Assembly: GCA_025699765.1 (NCBI GenBank)
Contig: GCA_025699765.1_4134.1
Length of the DNA stretch: 47,489 bases
Direction: 5' to 3' (one strand)
Source of the DNA: a phage
A program made the position numbers and the translations under genes. The stretch's first letter is position 1. Every line of letters starts with the position of its first letter. Below the pieces are notes generated by a model that saw only the letters and a program-made list of their open reading frames with translations, was not told the DNA's origin and searched no databases. Below are positions 1,926-40,032 of this stretch, one piece after another.

Positions 1926-2990
1926 TTACTTGTTTTGGTAGCGTACCCATGACGGCGTTTCAAGTTCAATCTCGCTTGCATCGCCAGCGTATCCAGGCCA
2001 AACATCCATTTCAGAGCAAGCCTTGTAAGTGTGGACTACGCTAATGTACTGACTGCGCCCGATCCTGATTTGCTCCATCGTCATACGATAAGCAAGGGCG
2101 ATGTAAGGCTCTTTTTTCTCCTGTGCCAGCAATCGAACTACGATCGGGATATCTTCCGGAAAGTCTCCTTCAAAAGCGCCAGCCTGGATTGCACGTCGTA
2201 GCAGGTCATGCTGCAAGGCCATTTTCAGGTAATATCCGTGATTGTATGCCAGTCGCGGGAACTCTAACGGGTTGGCGCTCATTGTAGTTTTGAAGTCAGT
2301 GATAATTAGCGCTTCAGGGAAAATAACGTCTTCAAATACAGGATCGCCGTTCTCATCATAACCAGTCAGCACTCGGCCTGGAACATTCTCTTTGTAGTCC
2401 AGATGGTCAAGACGAACCTTAACTTTGACGCCGGATATCTCACCGAAGATTGAGATCTCACGCTGCGCCGTTTTGCTGTTGATACACGCTTCATGATCGG
2501 GGTTCTGTTCAAGTATAGCTCTCATCTTCATGCAAGCATCATATTTATCAGCGTCAACCAGTTGCTTTCCTTCAGCGCGAGCCTCAGCTTCAGCAATAAG
2601 TTCAATAAGATATTGAACATTGAGATCTTCACCACAATCAACCATCATTTTGATGAGGTCAGGGTACTGCTTTCCTGATGTACCTTTCAGGCCGAATGAT
2701 TTTAATTTCGATGCAAGAGCGGCTTGTGACGTAATGAGATCCTTAAACTCTGACGGAGCCGGGCAACGGGCATACGATGCAGTAAACAGATCGCGACTCT
2801 CAAAGTTAGTATGCGACTGAGTACCAAATTCCAGCGCTTTAGTTGTCTCGTTCTTCTTGAATCGCCAGTTAGCCGGGCAAGTCTGATAGATTTCAGCAAG
2901 GCTAGATCCGCTTACATACTCCGCAGCCCAACCTTCATTGCTGTGATACTCGTCATTAGAAAGCTGACTTGATGTGAATACTTGGAACAT
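1926..2990 (-). CDS. Recombination exonuclease, PD-(D/E)XK (RecE/YqaJ-like)
   Basis: 354 aa with a D...ITDFKTT (D-x-K) nuclease motif; sits directly upstream of erf and ssb as in phage recombination modules; GGAG site before the ATG. Confidence 0.65.
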   Translation of the reverse strand: MFQVFTSSQLSNDEYHSNEGWAAEYVSGSSLAEIYQTCPANWRFKKNETTKALEFGTQSHTNFESRDLFTASYARCPAPSEFKDLITSQAALASKLKSFGLKGTSGKQYPDLIKMMVDCGEDLNVQYLIELIAEAEARAEGKQLVDADKYDACMKMRAILEQNPDHEACINSKTAQREISIFGEISGVKVKVRLDHLDYKENVPGRVLTGYDENGDPVFEDVIFPEALIITDFKTTMSANPLEFPRLAYNHGYYLKMALQHDLLRRAIQAGAFEGDFPEDIPIVVRLLAQEKKEPYIALAYRMTMEQIRIGRSQYISVVHTYKACSEMDVWPGYAGDASEIELETPSWVRYQNK

Positions 2991-3517
2991 TGCGTTTATC
3001 TCCTTCGTTTACGATGAATCCATTATAGCCATTAACAGCGTTTAGTCAATCGAATACATGTAATTGGTGTGTAATCGCGTGTCTATATTGCTCAAGTTAC
3101 AACCAGCATCAGCAGAATCAATGTCTTAAGTAGATTTTTATGCGCTGTCTATTGCGTAACACTTGTAACCGCTTTTTCTTAGAAATACAGAGATACCTAC
3201 AAATAGAATCCACATTGATTAAATTTTGAACATACATGATAGAAACTTGACGAATCAATCAAATCACCTGTTACACGATAGACAACTGTTACACAACAAT
3301 AATTATATATATAAAGCTAAAATTAAATATTATATATCTATATATATTATATAGAGTTTTTATCATATCTACCTGCGGTCGGATAGGGTCGATTTTGTAA
3401 CACCCCTTCCAGTGACAAAAATATACACCTGTTACACGAAAAATTTTGTAATCCAGCTATTGCAATAAAAGTAAATGCGACATACAATGCAATCACACTA
3501 ACGACGAGGACATACAA
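2991..3517. promoter_or_regulatory. AT-rich divergent control region with short direct and inverted repeats
   Basis: 527 bp non-coding stretch between divergent genes. CTGTTACAC occurs three times (about 3270, 3286, 3430), TGTCTAT twice, and there is a (TA)n-rich core at 3300-3360 containing tatatatattatataga, also found at about 32735. Confidence 0.45.
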
Positions 3518-3750: not shown

Positions 3751-4707
3751 ATGGGACAAGGAATATACATAAACCTAAATGACGGTCGTCCAGCAATGGA
3801 GATAACCTCGGGACTTCGCGCCCCGTCATGGTGCGGACCAATACAAGCGGACGGGGTTGATTCATCTGGATCGGTTTTTGATTTTGGTCTGCAAATGAGT
3901 CCAGGATCTACCGCTTTTTGCCTTCCATCTCAGGCTATCTACATAGACGACATGTATTATATCCCGGAGGTGTATTATTTAACCAGCTTTCAGAAGGTTA
4001 ATGATTCAACAGGGAGAATAACGGTAGGTAATTTTAACGGTCATCGTGGAAGGAGAATGAGATTTTATGGAAACTGTTACGAAATCCTCCCAGCTCAGGC
4101 TGGAAATCAGGGGATGCTTGTTAGCGATTCAACGAACTTCGCGGCGATACCGAATAACGCCAGGTTGATGAGCGCGGCATTTGTTGGAGGTATCCAGGTT
4201 AACGGTCAGGCTCAGTTGCCAGTCCAGGGTGTTCCTTTCGGTATGTGGGATAACCCAAATGTAACACTGGAATCTGACGGGAATACAATATGGTGCAGAG
4301 ACGCAAACTATAACGGTATTGATGACGTTGGCGCGAGCGTATACGTTCAACTCGTAATATTTAATAACACTCCACCACCTCCCGGTCCGGGAATCACTAT
4401 GAGCAACCCTGCTGGTCAGATCGTTTTCTCAAGCGTTCGACGTCCTTTTGTTCTCGGCGGGACTATGGCGATAAATGACGGGTGGCAGTGGTGTGGTGGA
4501 TTTTTCCCAATACTAAGAACAGGTACGATATGTAGAGTTACAGGTGGATATAATAACATTCGATACAAGGGCGTGTGTATGAGCGGCGGTAACGTGAGAA
4601 GCGCCCCCGGAACAAGAGTAGGTAACTATTCCACCCAAAGCGGAGCGCGATTCCCCTTCAATATAAACATTTCAATGCCAATTCCTTTCACTCCAAACAT
4701 GTATTAA
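3751..4707 (+). CDS. Hypothetical protein, 318 aa, co-transcribed with the lipoprotein
   Basis: Long ORF starting 3 nt after the lipoprotein stop, with a Pro-rich PPPPGPG segment and no signal peptide. No family recognised. Ends at a bidirectional terminator. Confidence 0.5.
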   Translation: MGQGIYINLNDGRPAMEITSGLRAPSWCGPIQADGVDSSGSVFDFGLQMSPGSTAFCLPSQAIYIDDMYYIPEVYYLTSFQKVNDSTGRITVGNFNGHRGRRMRFYGNCYEILPAQAGNQGMLVSDSTNFAAIPNNARLMSAAFVGGIQVNGQAQLPVQGVPFGMWDNPNVTLESDGNTIWCRDANYNGIDDVGASVYVQLVIFNNTPPPPGPGITMSNPAGQIVFSSVRRPFVLGGTMAINDGWQWCGGFFPILRTGTICRVTGGYNNIRYKGVCMSGGNVRSAPGTRVGNYSTQSGARFPFNINISMPIPFTPNMY

Positions 4708-8862: not shown

Positions 8863-9593
8863 AATTTAAGATCCTTATGGCGAACAATTAAAACTGTGTG
8901 ATCCTGATACCAGCCGGAATAAATATCACGACGTGATAGCTTTCCGAATGCGTGATGCAAGATCTGATTATCACCCAGGTAAATCCCTGCGTGATTCCAT
9001 ACCGGAACATTTTGCCCTATCTGCATGATTACCATATCACCGAATGACGGATTATTCTGATCTGGAATCTCAACGAATCCATCTTGCTTGTAATAATCCT
9101 GATAGAGATTAATTCCATATTCCGGTTTCCACCATTCAAAATTCAACCTTCGATCGCGCAATTCTACGCCGTGCTCTTTGTGCCAAGCCATAACAAGACC
9201 GTAACAGTCAAATGAGCCTAACGACCACGGACGACCAATCAGGGGTAATTTCTCAGGCTTCACAAATCGCATATCTCCTTCCGGTACGCTAACAATAATC
9301 CAGGTCACCTCCATCTCATTACACATGCACGTATCGTGAGCGCTCGGTAGAGTTGTAGCCCCGTCTCCGGTGTGGCTGTGGACGATTGCGATCGTGGTTG
9401 AGTCTGCGTCGTCCTCAATGCATGCGTATTGCACTGCGTCCATCATGAAGTGATTTTCAGGATCGCGATGCACGTTATCAACGCGATGGTATTTTTGCAC
9501 GCGGCCCTTTTGGGTGACTACCCCGCAGCATTCGCGGGGGTATTCTTCTTGTGCATGAGTCATGATTTCAAGTTTAATTTTTGCGCTAATCAT
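8859..9593 (-). CDS. Tail assembly protein K-like (MPN/JAMM plus NlpC/P60 domains)
   Basis: JAMM-like motif HSHTGDGATTLPSAHD, then an NlpC/P60-like Cys/His region (CYGLV...H); gpK position. Confidence 0.8.
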   Translation of the reverse strand: MISAKIKLEIMTHAQEEYPRECCGVVTQKGRVQKYHRVDNVHRDPENHFMMDAVQYACIEDDADSTTIAIVHSHTGDGATTLPSAHDTCMCNEMEVTWIIVSVPEGDMRFVKPEKLPLIGRPWSLGSFDCYGLVMAWHKEHGVELRDRRLNFEWWKPEYGINLYQDYYKQDGFVEIPDQNNPSFGDMVIMQIGQNVPVWNHAGIYLGDNQILHHAFGKLSRRDIYSGWYQDHTVLIVRHKDLKL

Positions 9594-36885: not shown

Positions 36886-37293
36886 ATGCTTCTTCTTTTA
36901 GATCTGTTCAGGTTCTGCGAAGGTTACGACAAATACACTCGTCAGCACATAGCGAAATTTATATACGCCCACAAGGAAAGTGAGCGATTTGCTAAGGCCG
37001 CCGGGATGACTCACCGTGAATTTACAAGCGCGCTATCTAAGGAGTTTTGCGCTCGTTGCGTTACTGATGGTTACTTGGATCGTAAGGATGGATTTTACTG
37101 GTGCAAGGGAAAGATCAAGCGCCCGGTAATGATGAAGCTGATGTGTATTGATGGCTACAACAATCGATATACGTGGGAAATGATGCATATTGGAGAAATG
37201 AGTGATGATGAATTGTTTGGCGAACGTAGAAACGTTGATAGATCGGAACGTCGAATTGTGCGCAAGACTCCAGCTTACGAAAGAAGAATTTGA
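36886..37293 (+). CDS. Hypothetical protein, 135 aa (C-terminal part doubtful)
   Basis: ORF starting 5 nt after the previous stop; its basic low-complexity C-terminus overlaps a better-looking ORF in another frame. Confidence 0.35.
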   Translation: MLLLLDLFRFCEGYDKYTRQHIAKFIYAHKESERFAKAAGMTHREFTSALSKEFCARCVTDGYLDRKDGFYWCKGKIKRPVMMKLMCIDGYNNRYTWEMMHIGEMSDDELFGERRNVDRSERRIVRKTPAYERRI

Positions 37294-37405
37294 ACAAGGA
37301 TTGCTCAGTCTATTGCTTACTTCTATGAGGGCAAATAACGACAGTGAGCACAATCTTTGCGATCAGGAGGGCGAATTACTCCTCCATGTAAAAAGGCACA
37401 AATAA
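37205..37405 (+). CDS. Hypothetical protein, 66 aa
   Basis: Overlapping-frame ORF with GGAG site and helical-looking sequence; ends at a strong terminator. Confidence 0.35.
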   Translation: MMNCLANVETLIDRNVELCARLQLTKEEFEQGLLSLLLTSMRANNDSEHNLCDQEGELLLHVKRHK

Positions 37406-37406
37406 G

Positions 37407-37427
37407 AAAGGAGGCTAAGCCTCCTTT
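37407..37427. terminator. Bidirectional terminator (aggaggct-aagcctcct + T7)
   Basis: Perfect hairpin followed by a T7 run; overlaps the spanin stop codon on the other strand. Confidence 0.55.
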
Positions 37428-37819
37428 TTTTCGCCCTTACGAATTGAAAAATAAACCAGCAACAGACCAATGAGAACGAGGGTCCAACCAACTATAGGAT
37501 CATACCAGTTTCCGGGCTTAGTCACAGTGATGCTTTCAGCGTTAACCGTGTTAGCCTTAATGGTTGACACTTCAATTGACTTCTTCACGGAAGAGTCAAC
37601 CTTTCCTACATTGGACTTTTCAACTTTAACATCTCGCTTATCTTCGGATTTTGCGGTTACTCCTGCTAATTGCTTTGTGTTCTCCTCTCCAATCTGTGCT
37701 GTAACTTCCGGTTTAGATCCGATTAAACCGCTCAGGGCAGATGGCATCGAGCAACCGGATAGAGAAATAACACCAACAGCCACTACAATCGCAATGCATG
37801 TTTTCTTCAGTTTCATCAT
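37415..37819 (-). CDS. Unimolecular spanin (lipoprotein with C-terminal transmembrane anchor)
   Basis: N-terminal signal peptide with lipobox LSGC plus a C-terminal TMD ([15 protein letters not shown]); about 134 aa, the architecture described for T1 gp11; last gene of the lysis cassette. Confidence 0.7.
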
Positions 37820-38304
37820 AATTCCTTAACGCAATACGCGTATTCTTCAGCGCGTCTGTTCTTGAGTCCTCTAGACACTTCGCGCTTTTTGGTTTTTGGG
37901 TTGTAGTAGTATACCCATCGCCATAACTGATTGCACGCTTCCCTGTGCTTACCCTGATTTATTAGCTTAAGCATTGTAGAAGATCCGAACGCGCCAGTAC
38001 CAACGTTGAAAGTAAAGCTATACAATGACGCGCGCATCGTTACAGGAATATCAACATTCACCTTTTTGTCTACGTATCTCTGAGCAACGCCGATGTGTTT
38101 TATCAACAAAGCATCGCATTCTCGCTTAGTGTATTTCTTACCAGGTATGACGTCCGGCCCGGTTATTCCGCTGCATACGGTAGGGACTCCGGCGATATCG
38201 TAATAAACCTCGTATTCTACACCTTCGATTCGTTCCAGTAGGGTAGGCGTCAACATCAAAGCTGCCCCGATCGATGCGCCTATAACGTTATTTTTTAAAC
38301 TCAC
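37816..38304 (-). CDS. Endolysin, phage lysozyme family, with N-terminal SAR-like segment
   Basis: Resembles P21 R21-type lysozyme ([24 protein letters not shown]; [25 protein letters not shown]; CNQLWRWVY), recalled from memory. N-terminal weakly hydrophobic Gly/Ala-rich stretch [17 protein letters not shown]. Confidence 0.8.
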
Positions 38305-38546
38305 TATCTCCCCCTGATCTTAAGCACCTTATTTAGATCGCCATCGTTTAACGCTTCCTGAATTGCCTTGCTATCGCGATACTTCCAGTACGCTCCCCAA
38401 GCGCCAAAAAGCAGAAAGCAAATGAATGTAGCGCCAGCAATATAAAGTTGACCTGTCGCTGCCCCCACCAACGAAGCACCGCCCGTGCTTGACGTAGCTG
38501 CTGTTAAAAATTCTTTCATAATCTCACCATATATTTTTTTGAACAA
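38304..38546 (-). CDS. Holin (possible pinholin)
   Basis: 80 aa with Gly/Ala-rich hydrophobic segments and a charged C-terminus, immediately upstream of the endolysin with ATGA overlap. Confidence 0.6.
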
Positions 38547-38638
38547 GTGAGTCGATTTTAACCTTCAAATTTACTTGATACAACGCAAAAAGGCCAGCAT
38601 GTAAATCATGCCAGCCTGTAAGGTGATGAATGATATTG

Positions 38639-38815
38639 TTAATCTATCTCAATAAATTCCAGGTAGTAACCATTCAGAGGTGCTTGGATTACTGAGCCTC
38701 TACCGTCGTAAATCTCAAACAATCCCCCACCGAAATCATAACCAACACTATAGATCTGATTTACGCGGAATGGAAGTGTTTTGGAGTCATTTCGGATGCA
38801 CTTAACTCGTTTCAT
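38639..38815 (-). CDS. Hypothetical small protein, about 58 aa (below track cutoff), first ORF of lysis transcript
   Basis: Hand translation MKRVKCIRNDSKTLPFRVNQIYSVGYDFGGGLFEIYDGRGSVIQAPLNGYYLEFIEID; AAAGAGG site upstream. Confidence 0.3.
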   Translation of the reverse strand: MKRVKCIRNDSKTLPFRVNQIYSVGYDFGGGLFEIYDGRGSVIQAPLNGYYLEFIEID

Positions 38816-38880
38816 GATATGTAGCCTCTTTGTTTTTGATGTGGTTACTATACCCGAATCCCTTCGGGCGTTTTTATCAA

Positions 38881-40032
38881 TTAGTGCGATCCTGTCATTT
38901 CTGGACGGTAGATGAATCGACCTATCTCACCAAATTTCTTGTCGTAAACGATTACCGCCGCCTGACGATATGAGCGCCACCCGCCGCGCGCGGCGTATGC
39001 ATCCTTCGCTCCTAACTGACCGTGAACCTCATCGATACCTAACGAGTGTTCAGTGATTGTCTGATGATGCCAGTGACCGCTATGAGTATACACATACTTG
39101 CTCTCTCCGAAGTCTGCACGGAAGTCTGCCGCCATCGCTGCAAGTCGCGTGTCTGCCTTTTTCATAGTGTGCCCGTGAGTGTATCCCAATAAGGTGTTTC
39201 CCCATCGAGTCTTATGCAGAATCATAGGGCTAACGTCAACGAATACTCGCGGCTCGTCTTCATAATATGCCGACATTGCAGCACGTAGCCAAATCATCCC
39301 GGCCTGGTCGTGGTTCCCTTCAATAATCTGAACCTCGACTTCTTTGTGTTTCATAAGCATTTTGTCGATAGCGCGACGCACAGAACGGATCGCAACATGC
39401 ACCAATTTTGCGTATCGTGAATCCTGATCCAGAACGTGACCGCTTGCCGGGGTAACAGCATCAAGACTGTCCGAGTGAAGGAAGTCACCGCCAATTAACA
39501 GAACAGCCTTCTCTGCGTTAGGGGCAATATCGATCGCGTAATTGAAGAAGTCGCTAAGCACTTTTTCCGCTACGTCGGTAGAGTAGTTCTCTCCGCATTC
39601 ATGCTTATGAGCAAGCGCACCAATATGGAGATCGAATACCGGATAGAGTGCCAACTTACCCATCGCTGTCGTAAGTCCTTGTGAGGTTAGTAGTTCAGTT
39701 GGCTTTGCTCGCGGCAGGTCTTCACAGAATGCAATGCGCGCCGCTTCCATCATTGCCGCAATCTTCTCGCGGTCCTGATCGGTCTTTACCCAGCGCACTA
39801 CCTCGGTCCCATCACCTCGAATCATCGTCGACGTGCCTTTTACCATGAATCCCTCGGGAACGTTTTTAGCAACATGCTCGTTACCGTGAAAATGACCTTC
39901 TTTTGCCAGCTTGGCGTGACGCGCTTCAACAGTGCGAATGTGCATGCCGTATTTTTCCGCGATCTCTCGAAGTGTTAGGCCGCTCATGCGCTCTTCGATA
40001 AGTTGCTCGGTAGTGATTTTAGCTTGTGACAT
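38881..40032 (-). CDS. HTH-metallophosphoesterase fusion protein
   Basis: N-terminal helix-turn-helix (LTLREIAEKYGMHIRTVEARHAKL) fused to a calcineurin-like phosphoesterase domain (DLHIG; GGDFLHSD; EGNHD; GHTHG; GHWHH). Confidence 0.7.
   Translation of the reverse strand: MSQAKITTEQLIEERMSGLTLREIAEKYGMHIRTVEARHAKLAKEGHFHGNEHVAKNVPEGFMVKGTSTMIRGDGTEVVRWVKTDQDREKIAAMMEAARIAFCEDLPRAKPTELLTSQGLTTAMGKLALYPVFDLHIGALAHKHECGENYSTDVAEKVLSDFFNYAIDIAPNAEKAVLLIGGDFLHSDSLDAVTPASGHVLDQDSRYAKLVHVAIRSVRRAIDKMLMKHKEVEVQIIEGNHDQAGMIWLRAAMSAYYEDEPRVFVDVSPMILHKTRWGNTLLGYTHGHTMKKADTRLAAMAADFRADFGESKYVYTHSGHWHHQTITEHSLGIDEVHGQLGAKDAYAARGGWRSYRQAAVIVYDKKFGEIGRFIYRPEMTGSH

Follow-up and report, generated by a model that had tools for sequence, protein, structure and literature searches.

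The lysis cassette of phage T1 has been published as a class II pinholin, a SAR endolysin and a spanin that is unimolecular (u-spanin) (PMC4559738, PMC11447400, PMC13164509), with the SAR nature of gp12 and the pinholin nature of gp13 both termed 'predicted' (PMC11447400). Its spanin, gp11, is the experimentally characterised prototype of the u-spanins and complements lambda Rz/Rz1 (PMC6139136). A second described system, that of P21/DLP12, combines the S21 pinholin and the R21/RrrD endolysin with a two-component Rz/Rz1 spanin, whereas the T1-type spanin is a single polypeptide. In April 2026, a DUF7244 protein was reported as a stand-alone SH3 protein encoded beside Drexlerviridae lysis modules, with a gene of this type in 188 of 522 genomes; the account, which concerns phage KanT1, describes the protein as an auxiliary component of the lysis module and leaves terminators and promoters unmentioned (PMC13164509).

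We analysed the corresponding locus in a 47,489-nt stretch of phage DNA (contig GCA_025699765.1_4134.1 of assembly GCA_025699765.1), referred to here as the window. The window represents a Tunavirus genome that shares 99.8% identity with Shigella phage phiL across the region, and the locus is syntenic with those of T1, Shfl1 and phiL.

Layout of the lysis locus

The locus carries four ORFs, encoding a 58-aa protein (ORF58), a holin, an endolysin and a spanin, all on the minus strand (Table 1). The initial annotation had left the strand unstated and had given coordinates for the four ORFs that match ours to the base. All four match curated families in Pfam and PHROG profile searches, with scores far above chance.

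Table 1. Features of the lysis locus and its borders, in the order in which the minus strand is read
Feature	Position	Strand	Description
Short hairpin (weak)	38853..38868	-	Between exonuclease gene and ORF58; -10.7 kcal/mol, z -1.8
ORF58	38639..38815	-	58 aa; T1 gp14 orthologue; Pfam DUF7244 (SH3 clan)
Intrinsic (rho-independent) terminator	38591..38617	-	11-bp GC-rich stem, 5-nt loop, then UUUUUGCGUUGU
Promoter-like element	38555..38583	-	-35 TTGTAT (38578-38583), 17-nt spacer, -10 TAAAAT (38555-38560)
Holin	38304..38519	-	71 aa; T1 gp13 orthologue
Endolysin	37816..38304	-	162 aa; GTG start; GH24 (T4-lysozyme-type) muramidase; T1 gp12 orthologue
Spanin	37415..37819 (or from 37816)	-	Unimolecular; T1 gp11 orthologue
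Bidirectional terminator hairpin	37407..37427	both	Convergence point; overlaps last spanin codons

In gene order, gene sizes and start/stop overlaps the locus matches T1 genes 13-12-11 and 14, and it shares with T1 the sequence of the upstream terminator as well as the convergent terminator. The two loci differ in an HNH endonuclease gene (gp15), which T1 carries between the exonuclease gene and gp14 and which is absent from the window. The spanin is the most diverged of the four proteins (78% identity to its T1 counterpart), compared to 99% for gp13, 96% for gp12 and 93% for gp14. Read from the sequence, the holin and endolysin genes overlap by one base and the endolysin and spanin genes by four. 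We consider it highly probable that the cassette is a T1-like siphophage lysis operon of three translationally coupled minus-strand genes, with ORF58 lying outside the lysis transcript.

The cassette is of the standard T1 type already in the literature, where the small upstream ORF has also been published, and the reading as pinholin, SAR endolysin and u-spanin that the initial annotation had offered is the published description of T1. The discovery value is small, since a textbook cassette recurs here in a close-to-identical relative of T1; its practical value is for annotation.

A probable conserved transcriptional boundary between ORF58 and the holin gene

We found a strong intrinsic terminator between ORF58 and the holin gene, with a hairpin of -16.9 kcal/mol (z -3.2). 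All 12 Drexlerviridae loci have a corresponding hairpin and T-run, with at least six different stem sequences among them, and three of these loci have no ORF58. In the shuffle control for this conservation, 1 of 540 shuffles was equally good. An independent annotation of the terminator is found in GenBank for phage SA32RD (97.9% identical).

The terminator is followed by a promoter-like element whose -10 hexamer is located about 35 nt 5′ of the holin ATG. Its -35 is weak, its consensus score is 8/12 and it is absent from the sigma-70 scan list; we kept it as a candidate because the -10 hexamer, as TAnnAT, occupies a single aligned column in 12/12 loci. The element is a match to a sequence consensus and a putative promoter of the lysis cassette. 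Transcription of the lysis operon probably starts at about 38548, just 3′ of the terminator, and stops at the bidirectional terminator at 37407-37427. The terminator may be leaky, in which case part of the transcription through ORF58 could continue into the holin gene.

The initial annotation had the 58-aa ORF leading the lysis transcript. This part of it is not supported, as the terminator and the -10 element intervene at all 12 related loci, including the three without the ORF. ORF58 is located upstream of the terminator, and so it would be a neighbour of the lysis transcript and not its leader. The other parts fared better: the four ORFs, the R21-like endolysin with its SAR-type N-terminus and the u-spanin are all supported, while the pinholin is an assignment of lesser strength, taken up below.

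Nature of the holin

The holin is 99% identical to T1 gp13 and matches PHROG 2877 ('holin') at 1.3e-37; its homologues carry PF27028. Residues F4 to W45 form an uncharged stretch of 42 residues, in which a Gly/Ala/Ser/Thr-rich N-half (residues 4-24) ends in a conserved G23-Q24 and is followed by a strongly hydrophobic transmembrane domain (TMD; residues 25-45), beyond which lies a basic cytoplasmic tail. The mean hydropathy of the N-half is 0.63, which is too low for a confident TMD call.

This protein is a putative pinholin. In the family alignment, the uncharged stretch with its near-invariant Gly-Gln midway is of a length that would suit a tight helical hairpin, and the composition of its first half resembles that of the SAR-like TMD1 of S21. 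The holin stop codon overlaps the GTG start of the endolysin gene, pairing the holin with a SAR-type endolysin. S21, too, is 71 aa long and works with a SAR endolysin, but its sequence is unrelated. We obtained no BLASTP alignment between the window holin and EssD at E<=100, and PF04971, which matches EssD at 2e-35, does not match it; kinship with S21 was rejected on these grounds. Nor does the window holin have a dual-start holin/antiholin motif, as it begins with a single Met start (MKEF...). The initial annotation's small, pinholin-like holin is therefore retained as a holin of 71 aa, with its pinholin character qualified by the missing S21 similarity and the weakly hydrophobic N-half.

Alternatively, the holin could have a single TMD (N-out, C-in) or be a canonical large-lesion holin, serving a SAR endolysin that does not need lesions. 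SAR endolysins are able to work with large-hole holins, as in the case of P1 Lyz, and only one segment of the window holin, residues 25-45, is clearly hydrophobic. The AlphaFold2 (AF2) model (pLDDT 64) contains one confident helix, residues 21-58, and a disordered N-half with pLDDT below 50, and the RefSeq note on the T1 holin reads 'single transmembrane domain'. The absence of similarity to S21 or PF04971 points in the same direction. Against this reading stand the helical-hairpin dimensions of the uncharged stretch, the S21-like composition of its first half and the assignment by the Center for Phage Technology annotators and others, who describe a two-TMD class II pinholin (PMC4559738, PMC11447400). 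We set the AF2 model aside as a judge of one versus two TMDs, since at pLDDT 64 it is uninformative beyond helix 21-58. Taken together, a holin other than a pinholin is possible but unlikely.

A longer version of the protein was also considered. The 80-aa, TTG-started form in the ORF list is an over-extension, and it was rejected as a possible antiholin because PHROG 2877 covers only its residues 10-80 and because T1, with an A6 run in place of the A7 of the window, has the TTG in another frame. In phiL, the closest GenBank record, the holin is unannotated.

ORF58 encodes a stand-alone protein of predicted SH3-like fold

At 58 aa, ORF58 falls under the 60-aa default cutoff of the ORF list, and a GAGG stands 9 nt 5′ of its ATG; the initial annotation had noted a good ribosome-binding site and a length below the cutoff. 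Its product is 93% identical to T1 gp14, matches DUF7244 over its full length in a Pfam search (4.3e-28; 97.6 bits, gathering cutoff 27) and matches PHROG 4788 at 8e-34. The AF2 model (pLDDT 88) has five strands, at residues 2-9, 21-29, 32-36, 42-46 and 52-57, and according to this model the protein is a stand-alone, five-strand small beta-barrel of SH3-like fold. We searched the model against the PDB with Foldseek and found SH3 domains with TM-scores of 0.6-0.72 but E>0.09. These matches are generic and gave no lead, so the search was discarded as a route to function.

The KanT1 stand-alone SH3 protein shares the family of ORF58, its position between the exonuclease and holin genes and its predicted SH3-like fold (PMC13164509). 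Following that proposal, ORF58 could be a working lysis accessory, either a wall-binding or an endolysin-modulating subunit, that is co-expressed with the other three genes in a four-gene cassette. Across Drexlerviridae, the DUF7244 gene, where present, always adjoins the lysis cassette (PMC13164509 and the loci examined here), the protein has a predicted SH3-like fold, and SH3b domains are cell-wall-binding modules of Gram-positive phage lysins (PMC13164509).

Most of our measurements run counter to such a role. At every locus examined, the terminator and -10 element separate ORF58 from the holin gene, and phages lacking ORF58 have the same boundary. In two lineages, the ORF58 start overlaps the stop of the upstream exonuclease gene (TAATG). 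Neither a signal peptide nor a TMD is present in the protein, in which no 19-residue hydropathy window reaches 1.0, and a pinholin would bar it from the periplasm until the cell lyses. We searched 1.84 billion proteins for relatives that are fused or secreted and obtained 24 representative clusters, all stand-alone proteins of 32-67 aa with one exception and none of them a lysin fusion; the exception, a 999-aa match, is probably spurious, as it covers only 17 positions of the profile. SH3b-type access to the wall is therefore offered neither by a hydrophobic segment nor by lysin fusion. The top 50 PDB matches from Foldseek include no SH3b or cell-wall-binding domain, all being eukaryote-type SH3. 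Moreover, homologues of the spanin were found in 1127 records compared to 296 for ORF58, so that the cassettes of most relatives lack ORF58 and lysis proceeds without it in the majority of Drexlerviridae. We therefore regard a lysis-accessory role as improbable.

In contrast to the KanT1 account, the conserved terminator/promoter boundary would place ORF58 outside the lysis transcription unit, and the recent claim of an SH3-like gene in the lysis module has to be weighed against that boundary. Judged from its sequence and context, ORF58 is a genuine gene that lies on the replication/repair-operon side of the terminator, and its product would be a cytoplasmic, stand-alone protein. It is a doubtful but conceivable proposal that the DUF7244 protein partners a cytoplasmic target other than peptidoglycan and that, separately, the junction before the holin times lysis-gene expression. 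One candidate partner is the Mre11-like exonuclease; in some lineages the DUF7244 start overlaps the stop codon of the exonuclease gene. Other candidates are the basic cytoplasmic tail of the holin or a small peptide with a single TM segment found before it in SRT8, NBD2 and KL3; if the protein partners either of these, it would be a regulator of lysis timing.

The endolysin and spanin resemble characterised lysis proteins

The endolysin is 96% identical to T1 gp12 and matches PF00959 (Phage_lysozyme) at 8.8e-34. Its best PDB matches are 3hde and 3hdf (P21 R) and 4zpu (RrrD), with 3hde at 9e-35, and it is a true homologue of the P21/DLP12 enzymes (45% identity to RrrD) with the same E-D-T catalytic triad, here E27, D36 and T42 (E-x8-D-x5-T), aligned to the R21 equivalents. 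Residues 11-139 align to residues 19-147 of 3hde, the full-length R21, and the alignment begins inside the N-terminal hydrophobic segment. This segment, N5-L23, consists of 19 uncharged residues between K4 and E24, and the uncharged N-terminus is kept in 11 relatives. Gly, Ala, Ser and Thr make up 44% of residues 6-23, and hydropathy peaks at 1.27, compared to 2.11 for R21. The evidence supports a predicted SAR-type, R21-like GH24 lysozyme.

That the N-terminus is instead an ordinary cleaved Sec signal peptide, from which the enzyme would be secreted and not SAR-held, is very improbable: its n-region/h-region layout (MSLK, then the 19 uncharged residues) and its lower hydropathy peak than that of R21 would suit such a peptide, but inspection by eye of the sequence behind the hydrophobic stretch revealed no Ala-X-Ala-type cleavage motif, the segment aligns to the SAR region that the mature enzyme of the 3hde structure retains, its character is kept in the 11 relatives, and an active muramidase, if constitutively secreted, would lyse the host prematurely.

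The spanin is 78% identical to T1 gp11 over 133 aa (E 8e-77) and matches PHROG 1804 (Rz-like spanin) at 2e-45. Its start is likely the second ATG, at 37816, as in T1, which yields a protein of 133 aa. Its N-terminal lipoprotein signal (hydropathy peak 2.14) leads to the lipobox LSGC, which is that of T1 (PMC6139136), and the Ser at +2 (SMP after the Cys) indicates sorting to the outer membrane. The same polypeptide has a C-terminal TMD (residues ~108-126, hydropathy 2.20) followed by a basic tail, RKGEKKEA. Lipobox and C-terminal TMD are kept together in 12 relatives, and between the two, in the predicted periplasmic domain, the motifs AQxGAENxKQ and VGKVDSS are common to family members. The data support a predicted u-spanin of the T1 gp11 family. 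The gene is the last of the cassette, overlapping the endolysin stop and followed by a terminator. A 28-aa ORF inside it (37713-37799) was rejected as an embedded o-spanin, having no signal sequence and no valid lipobox. In the original GenBank records of several relatives, the spanin is listed as a mere 'hypothetical protein'.

Proposed lysis mechanism

Because of their homology to characterised proteins, the three gene products can be placed in a sequence of steps. The 71-aa holin would build up in the inner membrane, trigger at a set time and collapse the proton-motive force. Until then, the endolysin would be exported by Sec, and its weakly hydrophobic SAR segment would keep it in the inner membrane in an inactive state. 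Depolarisation would free it into the periplasm, where it would refold like P21 R and cut glycan strands via E27, D36 and T42. A lipid at Cys23 (133-aa numbering, as in T1 gp11) would fix the spanin in the outer membrane, and its C-terminal TMD would fix it in the inner one; once the peptidoglycan mesh is lost, the spanin would be freed and would disrupt or fuse the outer membrane.

Hairpins at the borders of the locus

The hairpin at the convergence point has folding energies of -16.9 kcal/mol on the minus strand and -18.5 kcal/mol, followed by U7, on the plus strand. The SA32RD record annotates it on each strand, the T1 record on the strand of the converging genes, and it is predicted to close the lysis operon as well as the plus-strand genes that converge on it. 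At the other border, the weak hairpin before ORF58 lacks a proper T-run on the gene strand and is a terminator by the SA32RD annotation. Its position corresponds to the site in T1 that holds a terminator and the inserted HNH gene.

Gene content of the lysis region

The window is a T1-like siphophage genome whose 37300-39000 region shares 99.8% identity with Shigella phage phiL and 98-91% with other Tunavirus genomes, among them pSf-2, Shfl1 and SA32RD. The initial annotation had located a holin, an endolysin and a spanin here, led by a 58-aa ORF (ORF58); its coordinates exactly fit four consecutive ORFs, though it left their minus-strand orientation unmentioned. These four genes are real and well above chance, because BLASTP identities to T1 agree with profile matches to DUF7244 (ORF58, 4e-28), PHROG 2877 'holin' (1e-37), PF00959 'Phage lysozyme' (endolysin, 9e-34) and PHROG 1804 'Rz-like spanin' (2e-45). 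An 80-aa holin called by the ORF tool was rejected as an over-extension, since in T1 the TTG start falls in a different frame.

Coordinates of features in the window and, where named, in the extracted loci of relatives
Feature	Coordinates	Strand	Basis or remark
ORF58, 58 aa	38639-38815	-	BLASTP vs T1 reference genome: gp14, 93% identity
Holin	38304-38519	-	BLASTP vs T1 reference genome: gp13, 99% identity
Endolysin	37816-38304	-	BLASTP vs T1 reference genome: gp12, 96% identity
Spanin	37415-37819	-	BLASTP vs T1 reference genome: gp11, 78% identity
Hairpin and T-run	38591-38617	-	-16.9 kcal/mol
Promoter-like TTGTAT-N17-TAAAAT	38555-38583	-	Sequence consensus
'CACTTAA...TTGACA' stretch	~38520-38550	-
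Bidirectional terminator	37407-37427	both	Overlaps last spanin codons
67-aa convergent ORF	37202-37405	+
gp10 homologue	36886-37293
Spacer at T1 gp15 site	38816-38880		65 nt
gp15	T1 locus 3957-4583		Region with this HNH homing-endonuclease gene
Single-TM peptide	SRT8 locus ~2384-2490
Single-TM peptide	NBD2 locus ~2389-2497
Single-TM peptide	KL3 locus 2353-2487
Region of unannotated holin gene	phiL locus 9181-9514
Holin of K50_evo26	K50_evo26 locus 2732-2887 and 2898-3035		Two pieces

A conserved boundary between ORF58 and the holin

The spacer between ORF58 and the holin contains a GC-rich 11-bp hairpin and then UUUUUGCGUUGU. We compared the equivalent spacers of nine loci from Tunavirinae, Tempevirinae, Braunvirinae, Rogunavirinae and Vilniusvirus. 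All nine have a hairpin and T-run starting 20-27 nt past the ORF58 stop, built from at least six different stem sequences, and only 1 of 540 dinucleotide shuffles matched the real arrangement. The same kind of terminator precedes the holin in all three Drexlerviridae examined that have no ORF58 (pSf-1, FZ10 and Salmonella phage 36), and a TAnnAT hexamer 3' of the T-run occupies a single alignment column in all 12 loci. The SA32RD GenBank record independently annotates the ORF58-holin terminator, together with one that separates ORF58 from the exonuclease gene and the bidirectional one at the spanin end. On the other side, the exonuclease stop and the ORF58 start share bases (TAATG) in two lineages, represented by a Klebsiella K50-type phage and by JohannLBurckhardt.

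Taken together, the conserved terminator, the hexamer, the SA32RD annotation and the TAATG overlaps indicate that ORF58 lies upstream of a conserved transcription boundary, on its replication/repair side. The proposal that ORF58 leads the lysis transcript is not supported: a terminator and the hexamer precede the holin in 12/12 loci, three of which lack ORF58. Some read-through may occur. The lysis cassette proper would consist of holin, endolysin and spanin, with its own putative promoter, and end at the bidirectional terminator.

Apart from the transcript claim, the initial interpretation repeats what has been published on the T1 cassette, to which the window's cassette proteins and ORF58 are 78-99% identical; the lysis-cassette finding is already known. 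The boundary is the sole new point of this analysis, and mildly so; it argues against the SH3-like ORF58 gene as a member of the lysis operon. The KanT1 paper, which describes the ORF58 gene (PMC13164509), does not mention terminators or promoters.

A 'CACTTAA...TTGACA' stretch that lies after the -10 element and ahead of the holin start is conserved in several lineages; as part of the 5' UTR of the lysis transcript, it is possibly regulatory. T1 has a gp15 gene between the exonuclease gene and gp14. At that site the window carries no more than a spacer containing a short hairpin; the boundary therefore carries an insertion/deletion polymorphism.

The ORF58 protein

ORF58, which corresponds to T1 gp14, is a true gene and conserved; GAGG lies 9 nt 5' of its ATG. 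Its AF2 prediction is a five-strand barrel (pLDDT 88) that superposes on SH3 domains (TM 0.6-0.72). In a PDB structure search with this model no match had a lower E than 0.09, and the top 50 included no bacterial SH3b domain. Among 1.84 billion representative proteins, a profile search recovered only 24 clusters, essentially all of stand-alone proteins of 32-67 aa. No hydrophobic segment was found in the protein. The KanT1 paper, of April 2026, presents the gene as a 'stand-alone SH3 domain' that is widespread, though not universal, beside the lysis modules of Drexlerviridae (188 of 522 genomes), and hypothesises that its product modulates the endolysin (PMC13164509).

Immediately 5' of the ORF58 homologue, SRT8, NBD2 and KL3 encode a 35-44-aa single-TM peptide (e.g. 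MKKFVLGYVIPFVLGAVVTAALLSVIHLASNFKGF) that the window lacks and that the SRT8 and NBD2 records leave unannotated. This peptide might serve the SH3-like protein as a membrane partner.

The lysis proteins

Homology bears out a SAR-type endolysin resembling R21, the P21 endolysin. Its best solved relatives are P21 endolysin R (3hde, 3hdf; E about 1e-34) and the DLP12 copy RrrD (4zpu; 45% identity), and its triad E27-x8-D36-x5-T42 lines up with the R21 catalytic residues. The N-terminus has 19 uncharged residues (N5-L23) bounded by K4 and E24, which are Gly/Ala-rich and weakly hydrophobic (hydropathy peak 1.27, versus 2.2 in the spanin TMD); the HMMER alignment to full-length R21 starts within this segment, and its character is kept in 11 Drexlerviridae endolysins. 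By analogy, the protein would be exported, escape cleavage and be released on depolarisation.

The spanin has a lipoprotein signal with a terminal lipobox, LSGC, and towards its C-terminus a TMD and then a basic tail, so that one polypeptide appears to hold all the defining parts of a unimolecular spanin; Ser at +2 would direct it to the outer membrane. LSGC is the exact lipobox of T1 gp11, the prototype unimolecular spanin, which complements lambda Rz/Rz1 (PMC6139136). That study's database holds 58 unimolecular and 528 two-component spanins; the architecture is therefore the rarer one, as first annotated. In most relatives' original GenBank records, the spanin is a hypothetical protein.

The pinholin assignment is the weakest part of the initial interpretation. 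The holin has a 42-residue uncharged stretch (F4-W45), with a clear TMD at residues 25-45 and a first half that is 76% Gly/Ala/Ser/Thr (mean hydropathy 0.63). This composition and a near-invariant central Gly-Gln would be compatible with a tight hairpin whose TMD1 is SAR-like, as it is in the P21 pinholin S21. In published annotations the T1 holin is a class II pinholin with two TMDs (PMC4559738, PMC11447400), but the T1 RefSeq note reads 'single transmembrane domain'. The holin shares no sequence similarity with EssD, an S21 homologue, and lacks both a profile match to PF04971 and a dual-start motif; in the AF2 model (pLDDT 64) residues 21-58 form the one confident helix, and the N-half is disordered. 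These results do not support placing it in the S21 family, but it is reasonable to suppose that the protein works like a pinholin, because it is paired with a SAR endolysin.

The holin gene is unannotated in phiL, the closest GenBank record (99.8% identical). In K50_evo26, a Klebsiella phage from an evolution experiment, the holin annotation is split, which suggests that a frameshifted or truncated holin was selected as the phage evolved. Precomputed annotations give holin homologues a Pfam accession, PF27028.1, without counterpart in the Pfam release used here; a newer release therefore apparently has a dedicated family for this holin.

Neighbouring gene and database records

A 67-aa ORF converges on the spanin, terminates at the bidirectional terminator and shares about 90 nt, read in another frame, with the 3' end of the gp10 homologue. 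It is conserved at the protein level in 10 Drexlerviridae loci (37-96% identity). The phiL, SRT8, NBD2 and pSf-1 records annotate it; the T1 RefSeq record does not. Between 6 and 21 'Campylobacter phage' records (host Campylobacter jejuni) contain this T1-like lysis region or its genes; such a label is unexpected for a phage type of enterobacteria and could stem from mislabelling or contamination.
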